Assembly: GCA_024137785.1 (NCBI GenBank)
Contig: JAHRHZ010000126.1
Coordinates: 274,719 to 338,718 of the forward strand
Origin: Ginglymostoma cirratum
Taxonomy: Eukaryota
Reading direction: 5' to 3'
DNA: 64,000 bases
The notes under the pieces: generated by a model
The model's database searches: none
Told to the model about the DNA's origin: nothing
Seen by the model: only the letters and a program-made list of their open reading frames with translations
Position numbers and translations under genes: made by a program
In this document: one piece after another, positions 1,881 through 56,343 of the stretch
Numbering within the stretch: position 1 is the stretch's first letter
Layout: every line of letters begins with the position of its first letter

Positions 1881-1990
1881 TACAGCCAACTATTATATAC
1901 AACTTTACATTCATGGGCACATATACGTCTGCACTAGCACTAAGATATTCAATCACCCAAAAAAGGATGACAAAGTGATGATATCATGAG

Positions 1991-2114
1991 ATAACAGGAA
2001 CTGCAGATGCTGGAGAATCTGAGATAACAAGGTGTAGAGCTGGATGAACACAGCAGGCCAAGCAGCATCAGAGGAGCAGAAAGGCTGACGTTTCGGGCTT
2101 AGACCCTTCTTCAG
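1991..2114 (-). mobile_element. ~125-bp Penelope terminal-repeat unit with hammerhead core and 13-bp target-site duplication
   Basis: Matches Penelope ends at 8416-8515 and 55618-55708; flanked by ATGATATCATGAG at 1978-1990 and 2119-2131. Confidence 0.8.
2087..2114 (-). ncRNA. Minimal hammerhead ribozyme core
   Basis: CUGAAGA-A-GGG(UCUAAG)CCC-GAAA-CG-UC; conserved core, 3-bp helix II, palindromic ACGU; helix I not supplied by the flank. Confidence 0.6.
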
Positions 2115-2884
2115 GCTCATGATATCATGAGTCTGTCTCTTAAAAGGTATACTTACATAGATAAGACATAACACAAGTTGCCTTGTTGCACTCCCTGCTT
2201 CAATTGAAACGTTATGATTGTCCTTCCTCTAACCTGATGCTTGCTATTTATTCTGGTATAGGCTCTGGACAAATCTAATTTTTACTACCAATGTCACATT
2301 TGAGCAACATACCTGTTATAAAGCTGAAAGGATGTTTTCCCTCATGGACAACTGCAGGATCAGAGGGCATAGCCTCAGAATAAATGAATGCAAATTTAAG
2401 AGTGGGCTGAAGAGAGGAATTTCTTTTCTCAGAGGGTTGTGTCACTTTGGAACTCCACAAGAGAGCTGTGGGAGCAGAGTCCTGTTGTATGCTCAAGACT
2501 GAGATAGATAGGTACTTGACAAGTAGGGGAATGAAAGATTATGAGGAGAAGGCAGGGAAGTGAATGTGAGGAATGCTGGATTAGCCATGATCATATTGAA
2601 TGGCAGAGCAGGCTCATAAGGGCCAAATGGCTTACCTCTGTTCCTGCTTCTTATGGTCTTAGGGTCTTATGGCCTTACAACCTTATTAAATGTTGCTCAC
2701 AGACTGGCAAAAAGCCTTTGTGTTTATGAGGCCTTAGTTACCTAAGCAACTTACAACAGTGGAGCACAATCAGTCTGGAAATACAAGATTCATGAGCCGC
2801 CTCATGACAGGGATGGCTCAAAATCAATATAAGGAAATTATACACATTTAAAGGTAGAGATTGTGTTTTTGTTTCTGTTTTATC

Positions 2885-5030: not shown

Positions 5031-7216
5031 ATAGAACATAGAACATTACAGTGCAGTACAGGCCCTTCGGCCCTCGATGTTGCGCCGACCTGTGAAACCA
5101 ATCTGAAGCCCATCTAACCTACACTATTCCATTATCATCCATATGTTTATCCAACGACCATTTAAATGCCCTTAAAGTTGGCGAGTCTACAACTGCCGCA
5201 GGCAAGGCATTCCATGCCCTTACTACTCTCTGAGTAAAGAGCCTACCTCTGACATCTGTCCTATATCTATCACCCCTCCATTTAAAGCTTTGTCCCCTCG
5301 TGCGAGCCGTCACCATCCGAGGAAAAAGGCTCTCACAGTCCACCCTATCTAATCCTCTGATCATCTTGTATGTCTCAAATAAGTCACCTCTTAACCTTCT
5401 TCTCTCTAACGAAAACAGCCTCAAGTCCCTCAGCCTTTCCTCATAAGACCTTCCCTTGATACCAGGAAGCATCCTGGTAAATCTCCTCTGCACCCTTTCC
5501 AATGCTTCCACAACCTTCTCATAATGCGGTGACCAGAACTGTACGCAATATTCCAAGTGTGGCCGCACCAGAGTTTTGTACAGCTGCAACATGACCTCAC
5601 GGCTCCGAAACTCAATCCCTCTATCAATAAAACCTAACACACTGTATGCCTTCTTAACAACCCTATCAACCTGGGTGGCAACTTTCAGGGATCTATGCAC
5701 ATGGACACAGAGATCTCTCTGCTCGTCCACACTACCAAGAATATTACCATTAGCCCAGTACTCTGTATTCCTGTTACTCCTTCCAAAGTGAATCACCTCA
5801 CACTTTTCCGCATTCAACTCCATTTGCCACCTCTCAGCCCAGCTCTGCAGCTTATCTATGTCCCTCTGTAACCTGCAACATCCTTCCGCACTATCCACAA
5901 CTCCACCGACTTTAGGGTCATCCGCAAATTTACTAACCCATCCTTCTACGCCCTCATCCAGGTCATTTATAAAAATGACAAACAGCAGTGGCCTCAAAAC
6001 AGATCCTTGTGGTACACCACTAGTAACTGAACTCCAGGATGAACATTTCCCATCAACCACCACCCTCTGTCTTCTTCCAGCTAGCCAATTTCTGATCCAA
6101 ACTGCTAAATCACCCTCGATCCCATGCCTCCGAATTTTCTGCAATAGCCTACCGTGGGGAACCTTATCAAATGCTTTACTGAAATCCATATACACCACAT
6201 CAACCACTTTACCCTCATCCACCTGGTTAGTCACCTTCTCTAATAACTCAATAAGCTTTGTTAGGCACGACCTACCCTTCACAAAACCGTGTTGACTATC
6301 CCTAATCAAATTATTCCTTTCTAGATGATTATAAATTCTCTCGCTTATAATCCTTTCCAACACTTTACCCACAACCGAAGTAAGGCTCACTGGTCTATAA
6401 TTACCAGGGTTGTCTCTACTCCCCTTCTTGAACAAGGGGACAACGTTTGCTATCCTTCAGTCTTCTGGCACCATTCCTGTAGACAATGATGACAAAAAGA
6501 TCAAAACCCAAGGCTCTGCAATCTCCTCCCTAGCTTCCCAGAGAATCCTAGGATAGATCCCATCCGGCCCAGGGGACTTATCTATTCTCAGACTTTCCAG
6601 GATTGCTAACACCACCTCCTTATGAACCTCAATCCCGTATGGTCTAATAGCCTGTATCTCAGTATTCTCCTCAACAACATTGTCTTTTTCATGTGTGAAT
6701 ACCGATGAAAAATACTCATTTAGCACCTCTCCTATCTCTTCGGACTCCACGCACAACTTCCTACTACTGTCCTTGACTGGCCCTAATCTTACTCTTGTCA
6801 TTCTTTTATTCCTGACATACCTATAGAAAGCTTTAGGATTTTCCTTGATCCTACCTGCCAAAGACTTCTCATGTCCCCTCCTGGCTCTTCTTAGCTCTCT
6901 CTTTAGGTCCTTCCTGGCTAACTTGTGACTCTCAAGTGCCCTAACTGAGCCTTCACGCCTCATCTTTACATAAGCCTCCTTCTTCCTCTTGACAAGCGAT
7001 TCAACTTCTTCACTAAACCACGGTTCCCTCGCTCGACCACTTCCTCCCTGCTTGACAGGTACATACTTATCAAGGACACGCAGTAGCTGTTCCTTGAACA
7101 AGCTCCACATTCCAATTGTGCTCAGCCCCTGCAGTTTCCTTCCCCATCCTATGCATCCTAAGTCTTGCCTAATCGCCTCATAATTGCCTTTCCCCCAGCT
7201 ATAACCCTTGCCCTGC
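5031..7216 (-). mobile_element. Young 5'-truncated CR1 (HER1-like) LINE, copy 1
   Basis: ORFs 6457-7218 and 5119-6435 are in frame, separated by one TGA; (GTTCTAT)2 tail at 5031-5044. Confidence 0.95.
5119..7216 (-). pseudogene. CR1 ORF2 reverse transcriptase, truncated, one internal stop (6457-6459)
   Basis: KSPGPDGIYP, NYRPVSLTS, QHGF, MDFSKAFDKVPH, GVPQGSVL, KFADD motifs; no endonuclease domain. Confidence 0.95.
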
Positions 7217-7762: not shown

Positions 7763-8515
7763 CTCCATACTCTCCACCAACCCCACCACTCCTGGCGCCA
7801 TTTCCTACAACCACAGCAAGTGCTACACCTGTCCCTACACCTCCCCCTCTCACCTCCATTCAAGGCACAAAACAAACCTTCCACATTAGACAGGGGTTCA
7901 CCTGTACATCCTCCAACTTGGTCTACTGCTTCCGCTGTTCCCGATGTAGCCTCCTTTCCATCAGTGAGACCAAGCAGAGGCTTAGAGACCACTTTGTACA
8001 GCATTCATACTCTGTTCGTGATGAACGACAACACCTTCCCGGTCACATTTTAACTCCCCCCTCCCACTCCCTGGGTGACATGTCCATCCTGGGCCTCCTC
8101 CAGTGGCACAATGACACCACCTGCAAACTGGAGGAGTGGCACCTCATATTCTGCCTCAGGAGCCTACAGCCCAATGGTCTCAATGTGGATTTCATCAGTT
8201 TCAAAATCTCCCCACACCTGGCCTCATCCCATGACCAACCCTCCCTCTCATCCCCACTTCCTTGACCTGACACAACCTATCCACCCCTCCCACCTCACTG
8301 ACCAATCCCCACCACACTCCCTACCTGCACTGACCTATCACCATCCCACCCCTCTTCTCCAGCCCCAGCCCTCCTCTCTCTCTTTATTTCTGAGCTCTCT
8401 TCTCCCTCCCCATTTCTGAAGAAGGTCCCAACCCGAAACGTCAACTTTCCTGCTCCTCTGATGCTGCCTGGCCCACTATGCTCCTCCAGCTCCACGCTGC
8501 GTTGTCTATATCTCA
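7763..8515 (+). mobile_element. Penelope (Neptune-type) GIY-YIG endonuclease remnant and terminal repeat
   Basis: KCYTCPY Cys-rich linker; FTCTSSNLVYCFRCSRCSLLSISETKQRLRDHF (decayed VY..YIGET); LQPNGLNVDF; pyrimidine-rich UTR; hammerhead-like core 8416-8442. Confidence 0.88.
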
Positions 8516-11019: not shown

Positions 11020-11135
11020 ATCAAAAGAACTGTGGATGCTGCAAAGCTGAAACAAAAACAAAATTGCTGCAAAATCTCAGCAGATCTGGCAGCATCTGTG
11101 GAGAGAAGTCAGAGTGACTTCAGTTTTTGTTTCAA
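11020..11135 (-). mobile_element. Penelope-related terminal repeat fragment with short inverted end
   Basis: AGAACTGTGGATGCTG...CTCAGCAGATCTGGCAGCATCTGTGGAGAGA; TGAAACAAAAAC is inverted as GTTTTTGTTTCA. Confidence 0.6.
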
Positions 11136-16515: not shown

Positions 16516-16835
16516 CCTCACCCTTTATTTCTATGCCCTGTCTCCCTTCCAAACTCTAGTTATCATTATCTATATTGTTAACCTACTATATTGACTTATC
16601 CTTTCATTAACTTACTAAATCTCTCTTCATGATATCTTCCCTCTCAACTGCCCTACCCACCACCACTATCCAACACAAGTCCCACACTATTTAGATTGAA
16701 GCCCTCTCTACCTTACTTGCTGTTTGATTCAAAAGAACACCGGTCCCAGCATGGTTTAAATAAAGTCCATCCGAATAGTACAGCCCATACCTTCTCCAGC
16801 AATATACAGGAGGAAAAACACAGAGATAACTTTGG

Positions 16836-17059
16836 AGATAAAAGGTACTGCAGATGCTGGAGAATCCGAGATAACAAGCATGGGGTTGGATGAACACAGC
16901 AGGTCAAGCAGCATCATAGGAGCAGGAAAATTTGATGTTTCGGGCCTAAACCCTTCATCAGAAATGGGGGAGGGGAAGAGGGTTCTGAAATAAATAGGGA
17001 GAGAGGGGGAGGTGGATAGAGGATGGATAGAGGAGAGGATAGGTGGAGAGGAGGCAGAC
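16836..17059 (-). mobile_element. Penelope 3' terminal fragment with hammerhead core (16934-16961)
   Basis: Near-identical to 55618-55794; CTGATGAAGGGTTTAGGCCCGAAACATC on minus. Confidence 0.85.
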
Positions 17060-36492: not shown

Positions 36493-38367
36493 GAGAGCTA
36501 AGAAAAGCCAAGAGGGGACATGAGAAGTCTTTGGCAGGTAGGATCAAGGAAAATCCTAAAGCTTTCTATAGGTATGTCAGGAATAAAAGAATGACGAGAG
36601 TAAGATTAGGACCAGTCAAGGACAGTAGTGGAAAGTTGTGCGTGGAGTCCGAAGAAATAGGAGAGGCGCTAAATGAGTATTTTTCATCAGTATTCACACA
36701 TGAAAAAGACAATGTTGACGAGGAGAATACTGAGATACAGGCTATTAGACTAGACGGGATTGAGGTTCACAAGGAGGTGGTGTTAGCAATCCTGGAAAGT
36801 CTGAGAATAGATAAGTCCCCTGGGCCAGATGGGATCTATCCTAGGATTCTCTGGGAAGCTAGGGAGGAGATTGCAGAGCCTTTGGTTTTGATCTTTTTGT
36901 CATCATTGTCTACAGGAATGGTGTCAGAAGACTGAAGGATAGCAAATGTTGTCCCCTTGTTCAAGAACGGGAGTAGAGACAACCCTGGTAATTATAGACC
37001 AGTGAGTCTTACTTCGGTTGTGGGTAAAGTGTTGGAAAGGATTATAAGAGAGAGGGAGAGGATTTATAATCATCTATAAAGGAATAATTTGATTAGGGAT
37101 AGTCAACACGGTTTTGTGAAGGGTAGGTCGTGCCTCACAAAGCTTATTGAGTTCTTAGAGAAGGTGACTAAACAGGTGGATGAGGGTAAAGCGGTTGATG
37201 TGGTGTATATGGATTTCAGTAAAGCATTTGATAAGGTTCCCCACGGTAGGCTATTGCAGAAAATGCGGAGGCATGGGATCAAGGGTGATTTAGTGGTTTG
37301 GATCAGAAATTGGCTAGCTGGAAGAAGACAGAGGGTGGTGGTTGATGGGAAATGTTCATCCTGGAGTTCAGTTACTAGTGGTGTACCACAAGGATCTGTT
37401 TTGGGGCCACTGCTGTTTGTCATTTTTACAAATGACCTGGATGAGGGCATGGAAGGATGGGTTAGTAAATTTGCGGATGACACTAAAGTCGGTGGAGTTG
37501 CTGATAGTGCGGAAGGATGTTGTAGGTTACAGAGGGACATAGATAAGCTGAAGAGCTGGGCTGAGAGGTGGCAAATGGAGTTGAATGCGGAAAAGTGTGA
37601 GGTGATTCACTTTGGAAGGAGTAACAGGAATACAGAGTACTGGGCTAATGGTAATATTCTTGGTAGTGTGGACGAGCAGAGAGATCTCTGTGTCCATGTG
37701 CATAGATCCCTGAAAGTTGCCACCCAGGTTGATAGGGTTGCTAAGAAGGCGTACAGTGTGTTAGGTTTTATTGGTAGAGGGATTGAGTTTCGGAGCCGTG
37801 AGGTCATGTTGCAGCTGTACAAAACTCTGGTGCGGCCACACTTGGAATATTGCGTACAGTTCTGGTCACCGCATTATGAGAAGGTTGTGGAAGCATTGGA
37901 AAGGGTGCAGAGGAGATTTACCAGGATGCTTCCTGGTATCGAGGGAAGGTCTTATGAGGAAAGGCTGAGGGACTTGAGGCTGTTTTCGTTAGAGAGAAGA
38001 AGGTCAAGAGGTGACTTAGTAGAGACATACAAGATGATCAGAGGATTAGATAGGGTGGACTGTGAGAGCCTTTTTCCTCGGATGGTGACGGCTAGCACGA
38101 GTGGACATAGCTTTAAATGGAGGGGTGATAGATATAGGACAGATGTCGGAGGTAGATTCTTTACTCAGAGAATAGTCAGGGCATGGAATGCCGTGCCTGC
38201 AGCAGTTGTAGACTTGCCAACTTTAAGGGCATTTAAATGTTCGTTGGATAAACATATAGATGATAATGGAATAGTGTAGGTTAGGTGGGCTTCAGATTGG
38301 TTTCACAGGTTGGCACAACATCAAGGGCCGAAGGGCCTGTACTGCGCTGTAATGTTCTATGTTCTAT
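36493..38367 (+). mobile_element. Young 5'-truncated CR1 (HER1-like) LINE, copy 2
   Basis: ORFs 36531-36935 and 37089-38279 in one frame; (GTTCTAT)2 tail 38354-38367; about 27 differences in 396 aa from copy 1 by hand count. Confidence 0.95.
36495..38279 (+). pseudogene. CR1 ORF2 reverse transcriptase, truncated, stops at 36933-36935 and 37077-37079
   Basis: MDFSKAFDKVPH, GVPQGSVLGP, KFADDTK; in-frame GAGAGG duplication near 37050-37062. Confidence 0.95.
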
Positions 38368-42399: not shown

Positions 42400-43410
42400 G
42401 CAACTAGATCATGGAAACAGGAGAAGGCCACTCAGCAGCCCTTCGAGCCTGCTCCATCATTCATTATAACCATGGCTCATCCTCCATCTCAATGCCATTT
42501 TCCTTCACCACCCCTATTTTCCTTGAAATCTTTAATAAACGAATATGTATCAATCAGTGTGGAGTATATTTAATGGCAACTTACGTAGTCTTCTAGGGTA
42601 GAGATTCACCATCCTCCAAGAAGAAATTTCTCCTTGTCTCAGTTTCACATGGCCTACTTGTTCTGAACAGTTATCCAGGGCCTTGGTGGGACCACACCTG
42701 GAATACTGTGTGCAGTCTTGGTCTCCTTCCCTAAGGAAAGGATATATTTGCCAGACAGTGGATGCAGCAGAGGTTCAGTAGGCTGACACCAGGGATGGCA
42801 GGACTGTCCAATGAAGATTGGTTCAACTGGGCCTTCTGAAGAAGGAAGGGTCTAGGCCCCAAACATCAGCCTTCCTGCTCCTCTGATGCTGCTTGGCCTG
42901 CTATGTTCATCCAGTTCTACACCTGGTTATCTCAGATTCTCCAGCATCTGCAGTTCCTACTATCTCTGTATTCACTACAGTTTGGAAGGTTGAGAGCAGA
43001 TCTGATTGAAATACATAAAATTCTAAACAGGGCCAGGCAGAATAGATGCAGGAGGAGGTTTTCCCGAGTAGGGAAGTTTAAAATCAGGATGGTCTTAGGA
43101 TTTGGGATAGACCATTTAGAACGGAGATTTTCTTTTAATTCATTCAGGGGGTGAGGGTGTCACTGACTAGGCCAGCATTTATTGCCCATCCCTAATGAGG
43201 AAACTATGTTCACTTAATGGGTAGTAACCCTGTGAAATTCTCTTATCACAGAAGGTTAAGAACCAAGTTACTGAACAGTTTCAAGAAAGATCTAGACTTT
43301 AATATTTTAAAGGCATCAAGCATCAAGTAAGTAGAAATATGATAAAATCATTGGGCATGGGTTCAAAGAGCTGAATGGCCTACTCCTGGTCCTAGTTTCC
43401 ATGTTTCTAA
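42400..43410. mobile_element. Nested old CR1 fragments (minus 42400-42660, plus 42670-43410)
   Basis: GCCTTGGTGGGACCACACCTGGAATACTGTGTGCAGTCTTGGTCTCC encodes LVGPHLEYCVQSWSP. Confidence 0.75.
42835..42966 (+). mobile_element. ~130-bp Penelope terminal-repeat unit inserted in a CR1
   Basis: Same span as 1991-2114; interrupts CR1 sequence CAACTGGGCCT|GTATTCACT; hammerhead core damaged (CAAAC for GAAAC). Confidence 0.8.
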
Positions 43411-50091: not shown

Positions 50092-50255
50092 AAAACAGAA
50101 ATTGCTGGAAAAGCTCAACAGGTCTGGCAGTAGCAGTTCTGAGGAAGGGTCACTTGGCCAGAAACATTAACTCCGATTTCTCTCCACAGATGCTGCCAGA
50201 ACCACTGAACTTTCCAGCAATTTCCGTTGTTCCTGATTTCCAGCATCCACAAGTC
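50092..50255 (+). mobile_element. Penelope-related terminal repeat (second family) with inverted 5' copy and hammerhead-like core
   Basis: AGTT-CTGAGGA-AGGGTCACTTGGCCA-GAAACATT-AACT at 50135-50172; 50093-50130 is an imperfect inverted copy of ~50191-50231. Confidence 0.7.
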
Positions 50256-55530: not shown

Positions 55531-55680
55531 CCTAAATGGTTCCAGTCAATGAGAGCTGGGTCAGTGATCATTCAATAACTGTAAAATTATTGATGCTCAA
55601 AAAACACACAACACAAGTTAACAAGCATGGGGCTGGATGAACACAGCAGGTCAAGCAGCATCATAGGAGCAGGAAAGCTT

Positions 55681-55708
55681 GACGTTTCGGGCCGAGACCC
55701 TTCATCAG
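55681..55708 (-). ncRNA. Minimal hammerhead ribozyme core, best-preserved copy
   Basis: uuu-CUGAUGA-A-GGGU(CUCG)GCCC-GAAA-CG-UC-aag; canonical core, helix II, GUC triplet, 3-bp helix I. Confidence 0.7.
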
Positions 55709-55943: not shown

Positions 55944-56343
55944 NNNNNNNNNNNNNNNNNNNNNNNNNNNNNNNNNNNNNNNNNNNNNNNNNNNNNNNNN
56001 NNNNNNNNNNNNNNNNNNNNNNNNNNNNNNNNNNNNNNNNNNNNNNNNNNNNNNNNNNNNNNNNNNNNNNNNNNNNNNNNNNNNNNNNNNNNNNNNNNNN
56101 NNNNNNNNNNNNNNNNNNNNNNNNNNNNNNNNNNNNNNNNNNNNNNNNNNNNNNNNNNNNNNNNNNNNNNNNNNNNNNNNNNNNNNNNNNNNNNNNNNNN
56201 NNNNNNNNNNNNNNNNNNNNNNNNNNNNNNNNNNNNNNNNNNNNNNNNNNNNNNNNNNNNNNNNNNNNNNNNNNNNNNNNNNNNNNNNNNNNNNNNNNNN
56301 NNNNNNNNNNNNNNNNNNNNNNNNNNNNNNNNNNNNNNNNNNN
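55944..56343. other. Assembly gap, 400 N
   Basis: Direct reading. Confidence 1.

Follow-up and report, generated by a model that had tools for sequence, protein, structure and literature searches.

Introduction

Minimal hammerhead motifs are a known feature of metazoan Penelope-like elements (PLEs). In the account of Cervera and De la Pena (2014, PMC4209133), most of them are single and dispersed and some are paired on opposite strands, 100–700 bp apart; that paper already ascribes single copies and opposite-strand pairs to truncated PLEs. Solo pseudo-LTRs (pLTRs) are explained by recombination or deletion in PMC3846280, a study that also reports TATA and initiator-like motifs in the pLTR of a rotifer element. 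Drosophila Penelope is described as having an internal, TATA-less promoter (PMC2377424). Elements of the Neptune/Nematis type are marked by a CX2-5CxxC linker and by cysteines between GIY and YIG (PMC8557442). The insertion reaction has been followed in vitro for an anole PLE, which cleaves two strands and primes internally at two sites that define its tail, independently of ribozyme cutting (PMC11167929). Non-LTR retrozymes, by the descriptions in PMC7229834 and 10.64898/2026.07.22.740005, form head-to-tail arrays of 150–450 bp units with canonical type I hammerheads, and give circular RNAs.

Here we analyse a solo hammerhead-bearing unit in a 64-kb stretch of Ginglymostoma cirratum DNA (64,000 nucleotides of contig JAHRHZ010000126.1), referred to below as the window. 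A preliminary description of the window, which had proposed that the terminal repeat itself moves as a tiny retrozyme-like element, is confirmed in part. In our reading, to which we give a probability of roughly three in four, the unit represents the terminal repeat of a shark PLE that is abundant, was made by copying the 5′ end of one of the element's transcripts, and is unable to spread alone.

Results

A pseudo-LTR inserted alone

Features of the window are collected in Table 1. Element positions are counted from the C of CTGAAGA at window position 2114 on the minus strand (+1), and there is no position 0. The unit of about 125 bp that had been described as starting at CTGAAGA is real; it measures 127 bp, and CTGAAGA are its first bases. 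It differs from the family majority at four places, and each of these four variants also occurs singly among long copies. The 13-bp target duplication, ATGATATCATGAG, does flank the unit at both places as claimed, but four extra bases intervene on the right and three bases overlap the element on the left.

Table 1. Features of the window, with the basis of each assignment or a remark.
Feature	Position	Strand	Basis or remark
Solo pseudo-LTR and its tail, from a Penelope-like element of Neptune/Nematis type, +1 to +127	1988..2114	−	sequence comparison
Predicted minimal hammerhead motif, made up of the CUGAAGA core, one extra base, a short helix II, GAAA and a palindromic ACGU	2087..2114	−	sequence compared with the description in PMC4209133
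33-bp tail bounded by the proposed priming sites at +94 and about +127	1988..2020	−	ends of arms and main copies; contig ends in related organisms
Left copy of the 13-bp target duplication	1978..1990	+	last 3 bases are also the element's 3′ end
Right copy of the 13-bp target duplication	2119..2131	+	direct repeat of the left copy
Four junction bases, GCTC, between unit and right repeat	2115..2118	+	lengthen the target palindrome from 10 to 16 bp
Second short copy, starting at −2, no target duplication, within another repeat	42834..42966	+	paralogue comparison
Related copy continuing upstream into the element's 3′ untranslated sequence	16835..16961	−	sequence
Related copy that has long upstream sequence and ends close to the +94 site	55632..55708	−	sequence
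More diverged related copy with long upstream sequence	8416..8495	+	sequence

The hammerhead was called from its core motif alone. The core boxes, helix II and palindromic helix III of a minimal hammerhead are all present, and the predicted cut falls after 2087. A helix I of 4–5 bp is not found in the insert, from which one strand of the helix is missing, nor in the family majority, where helix I has 2 bp; it reaches 4 bp in the copy at 16835 and in a second family treated below. Rfam at its gathering score gave zero matches in the window, and cofolding of the motif yielded no informative dimer. Compared with the metazoan PLE minimal hammerheads described in PMC4209133, the shark motif shares the core boxes, the extra base before helix II, the G10.1-C11.1 pair and the palindromic helix III. 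It departs from them in its helix II, of 3–4 bp as against 7–8 bp, and in its reduced or absent helix I.

The family is abundant: a 39-mer of the unit (+80 to +118) has 12,375 exact matches in the 4.36-Gb genome. Upstream of the unit, long copies carry a pyrimidine-rich stretch and then the end of an ORF. [quoted passage not shown] The Pfam GIY-YIG match of this translation is below the cut-off (E=0.0078). The closest named proteins are from sharks, and the best homologue (P0001, 82% identity) has GIY-YIG above the cut-off and a weak RVT_1 match. Downstream, the continuation past the tail into the interior has 145 exact matches. Our interior-bearing set comprises 30 loci, and 25 of these 30 have a second pLTR downstream. 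The interior reading frame begins with an ATG at +167 and is open for about 250 codons in L150. Because the unit is joined upstream to the end of the RT-GIY-YIG ORF and downstream to an ORF start, it is both 3′ repeat and 5′ leader. Judged by sequence, it is the terminal repeat plus tail of an EN+ Neptune/Nematis-type PLE. Its identification as a Penelope pLTR with a minimal hammerhead motif holds; it was inserted alone, with a duplication of the 13–14 bp typical of the family. The analysis assembled no intact full-length element.

Relative to the EN+ Neptune/Nematis-type PLEs described in PMC8557442 and PMC3846280, the shark family agrees in its C-terminal GIY-YIG after RT, its CX4CxxC linker, its pLTR and its tail (33 bp as against 30–40 bp). 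Adjacent head-to-head inverted 5′-truncated copies, partial tandems and variable target duplications are also common to both. The shark family differs in that most insertions are only 50–135 bp per arm and in that copies stop sharply just before the hammerhead.

There are five family copies in the window, of which three (8416–8495, 16835–16961 and 55632–55708) extend far upstream of the core. The second copy that had been placed at 42835–42966 with the same span as the insert exists, but it is one base longer at its left end, starts two bases upstream of the core and lacks a duplication; the repeat that it interrupts has paralogues that read straight across the site. Also in the window are a segment of about 1.87 kb present in two inverted copies that are 96% identical (5031–6899 and 36493–38367) and a 400-base run of N (55944–56343).

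Copies stop at a wall just before the hammerhead

We tabulated 5′ ends in 100 of the 12,375 matches, namely those listed first, a sample that is unbiased for the 5′ end; 12 were dropped for masked flanks, which left 88. Among these matches listed, 24/88 have their end within −6 to −2 and 20/88 further upstream, with no end between −7 and −30; 44/88 are spread across +1 to +74. By eye, three of the 24 reach −7 or −8, because the reference copy carries a variant at −6; the wall is spread across about 6 bases. The smooth spread of ends that would have refuted the preliminary description is thus not seen, but the peak lies at −2 to −6 rather than at the core, where exactly one of the 88 matches listed begins. 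Ends at +28 to +30, around the predicted ribozyme cut, number 3/88 among the matches listed, not above the general spread, and we reject the cut as the origin of the ends.

Genome-wide exact counts show the same wall. Matches extending to −2 number 17,230, to −4 9,898, to −6 6,504 and to −9 4,972, so that retention per base over successive steps is 0.76, 0.81 and 0.91 as against about 0.96 expected from mutation alone. The equivalent losses per base are 24%, 19% and 9% as against about 4%; the mutational baseline is taken from 11 of 15 long copies that are exact over seven bases. The base directly preceding the core is non-T in 859 exact matches, compared with 17,230 that have TT there, and this, with the single core-exact end, leads us to discard the idea that the family characteristically starts at the core itself.

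A second hammerhead family has a CTGAGGA core and is found in the window at 50138–50251 and 11024–11115 and at loci L191–L220; a 44-mer of it has 2,545 exact matches. The 330 bases upstream of its unit align to those of the first family over just 11 bases. Its 4-bp helix I ends exactly at −4. In 14 of its 30 loci the 5′ end is at −5 to −2, in 9 it lies inside the unit and in 7 far upstream, two or three pairs among the 30 being arms of one insertion.

Both families carry promoter-like words at a fixed distance from the wall. In 13 of 17 long copies of the first family, TATTTAT precedes the A at −4 by exactly 31 bases, and that A lies within CCATTTC, an initiator-like word. In the second family, TATAAA precedes an A at −4 by 29 bases at 5 of 7 long loci. 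The TATA-like box is outside the unit, and short copies have none. Given the genomic ends and motifs of two families, the simplest reading is that the wall is likely a polymerase II transcription start at about −4. A likeness exists in rotifer Pen2a, whose pLTR is described as containing TATA and initiator-like motifs (PMC3846280). Two observations speak against a start site: a cap-derived excess of G before the A at −4 was not found in the genomic counts (G 688, A 1,035), and the wall extends over about 6 bases.

At three loci, L150, L155 and L158, a TATA-like box, pLTR and ORF start follow one another; these are candidate sources of short RNA.

We considered whether short copies could instead be ordinary 5′-truncated 3′ repeats of long transcripts, the wall being an RT stall or template break at the front edge of the ribozyme. 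Truncation is the textbook origin of single pLTRs, it would suit both the 44 of 88 matches listed whose ends are smoothly spread inside the unit and the missing cap signature, and the first family has a run of C just upstream of the wall. However, the second family stops at an identical offset with no such run. A structural stall would moreover be expected before, not after, the folded motif, and beyond the wall only 7/20 copies among the matches listed end within the next 300 bases. We therefore consider this origin of the wall unlikely.

RNA processing, in which a splice junction or cleavage rather than a transcription start would set the 5′ boundary of the template, seems highly improbable to us. 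The intron of Drosophila virilis Penelope is described as ending at the 5′ end of helix I (PMC4209133), and the second family does have, at −5 to −3, a CAG that follows pyrimidines. Yet the first family lacks an AG at the wall, and no upstream exon sequence is common to the short copies.

Target duplications, inverted arms and priming sites

Among short copies, 43/68 are flanked by a target duplication of at least 10 bp, with modes at 13 and 14, as against 2/204 decoy boundaries; flanking repeats of this length are therefore not due to chance. An inverted partial copy adjoins the 5′ end, head to head, in 42/68. Of these inverted arms, 23/42 start at +91 to +95 and 13/42 stop at −7 to −2, with none going beyond, whereas the 3′ ends of main copies lie mostly at +125 to +135. 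In the first 100 matches listed, the 3′ end continues into interior sequence for at least 3 bases in 33/100 and for at least 6 bases in 18/100; this match to the interior indicates that many templates were likely longer than the unit.

The two arms share non-majority variants in 11/55 cases, compared with a mean of 3.8% and a maximum of 16.7% in 2000 shuffles. At the common +32 variant, however, only 17/24 pairs agree, and a single template per insertion is thus not general. Two unrelated loci, L100 and L102, have an identical arm-to-arm junction (two C between −3 and −2). At L109 and L125, short copies are inserted at a similar position within a related GIY-YIG coding sequence that belongs to a different Penelope family.

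The ends of the copies agree with the in vitro model of the Poseidon element PAc of the green anole (Frangieh et al. 2024, PMC11167929), that is, two-strand nicking with priming at both tail-defining sites. In PAc, and by our reading in the shark family, both strands are cut and extended, two internal priming sites bracket the tail, and ribozyme cutting is dispensable for insertion. The two elements belong to different clades, and their priming differs: in vitro, the PAc priming site is no different on one strand from the other, whereas in the shark tail-anchored copies the inverted arm starts mostly from +94; and PAc primes inside the ORF, whereas shark priming would precede the predicted ATG at +167.

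The same end points appear in related organisms. Contigs of two of them (A and B) enter the unit from both flanks, which are 6–8% diverged, and the insertion is old and common to these organisms. Loose contig ends pile up at 1988 and 2020–2021, the same two end points as the +127 and +94 sites. An empty orthologous site, which had been suggested as a check, was not found: among the 15 of 183 joints listed for organisms A and B, none skips the unit. Some contigs of related organisms join the tail end (1988, +127) to the second priming site (2020–2022, +94) on opposite strands, tail to tail; such joints may reflect repeated insertion at one site.

The long palindrome as a probable product of the junction

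The right repeat had been reported to lie in a perfect 16-bp palindrome. This palindrome (2116–2131) is real and is the sole one of at least 16 bp in the window, and over the wider span 2112–2135, 22 of 24 bases are self-complementary. It depends, however, on three of the four extra junction bases: when the pre-insertion site is rebuilt from the flanks with the duplication removed, the palindrome is only 10 bp, and palindromes of at least 10 bp number 84 in the window.

Two origins can be given for the junction bases. The GAG after the insert's duplication is identical both to the first three bases of a second, inverted arm and to what the palindromic target would yield by fold-back; target fold-back plus one transition accounts for all four junction bases and the CTG join. 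It seems likely that bases 2115–2118 are either such a fold-back copy or the stub of a second cDNA, and the long palindrome would be a product of the junction under either origin.

Tabulated across the matches listed, target palindromes of at least 8 bp occur in 0/43 duplications of short copies; the largest within them is 6 bp, similar to random flanks, and we reject a preference for palindromic targets.

Discussion

The preliminary description had gone furthest in proposing that the solo unit is a self-propagating non-autonomous mini-element, which would be transcribed, processed by its hammerhead to unit-length or circular RNA and reinserted by Penelope enzymes. Several observations are in keeping with this. 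Short copies outnumber long ones (68/88 among the matches listed), their 5′ boundary is defined, and they carry duplications of their own; PLE-derived retrozymes have been described (10.64898/2026.07.22.740005), as has mobilisation in trans by pLTRs (PMC3846280). The boundary, however, lies 30 bases upstream of the predicted cut, where 3/88 ends fall (+28 to +30), which means that the copied RNA was uncut, and helix I cannot form in the insert. Among the exact-39-mer copies, an anchoring that limits power for diverged short subfamilies, no allele separates the 68 short from the 20 long copies (smallest uncorrected P 0.048), and divergence is alike for both, at 3.6–4.7%. Solo copies have no TATA-like box, their 3′ ends enter interior sequence, and nowhere in the window is the unit arrayed in tandem. 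The dimers that do occur (25/30 loci) include interior sequence of variable length with variable joints, as in ordinary partial tandems. With no cluster of ends at the cut site, no array in the window and no private alleles among these copies, self-propagation is unsupported, and we judge it very unlikely.

Comparison with defined classes of small element leads the same way. The unit resembles the animal non-LTR retrozymes of PMC7229834 and 10.64898/2026.07.22.740005 in being non-coding, hammerhead-bearing and related to PLE pLTRs, but it is a dispersed monomer with a minimal motif and with ends off the cut site. Head-to-tail arrays with a hammerhead in each unit are lacking in the 64-kb window, and the motif is minimal, with no Rfam match to a canonical type I hammerhead. 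The insert is not a retrozyme. Nor do short copies form a SINE-like subfamily of their own, with diagnostic alleles and fixed ends: their ends are variable, and among the copies with an exact 39-mer no allele is diagnostic and no separate short subfamily was found. Short copies are likely by-products of element transcripts.

In our preferred reading, the copying of the 5′ end of an element transcript, the events would run as follows. The template RNA would start at about −4, directed by the TATA-like box some 30 bases upstream and by the initiator-like sequence. The element protein would nick both strands about 13–14 bp apart, and reverse transcription would be primed internally, at about +127 on one strand and at +94 on the other. 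Both cDNAs would run off the 5′ end of the RNA within 130 bases and would then be joined, leaving a product with no TATA box; the ribozyme would have stayed uncut in the copied template. At the insert, only the +127 cDNA would have survived, and the other nick would have left the four junction bases, lengthening a chance 10-bp palindrome. Long 3′ fragments that retain the TATA box could serve as alternative sources of the RNA.

It is tempting to speculate further that shark Neptune-type elements shed tens of thousands of units of about 130 bp, their priming sites being close to their own RNA's 5′ end. Every transcript started by TATA and initiator ahead of the hammerhead would then be a template, including those of non-coding 3′ fragments that keep the promoter. 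We advance this only tentatively, and think it somewhat doubtful.

The element itself is ordinary, a dispersed Penelope end piece of a known kind of insertion and one of many thousands. Its value is as evidence on the poorly understood Penelope reaction, and the main point of interest is the start-site wall in two families. Our results suggest that solo pLTRs arise as run-off copies of an RNA 5′ end and not only via truncation or recombination. We found no statement in the literature searched that solo pLTRs are run-off copies from a transcription start, although Repbase or Dfam entries, subscription papers and preprint supplements may hold one. The run-off model predicts an exact, testable start site and promoter. 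For annotators there is a caution, in that such stubs should not be called SINEs or retrozymes. If the wider shedding of units is true, the genome would be a fossil map of the Penelope reaction, recording two nicks 13–14 bp apart, two priming sites and run-off where transcription begins. Fragments that bear the promoter would, in that case, be non-autonomous sources of a hidden class, giving rise to ribozyme-bearing stubs.
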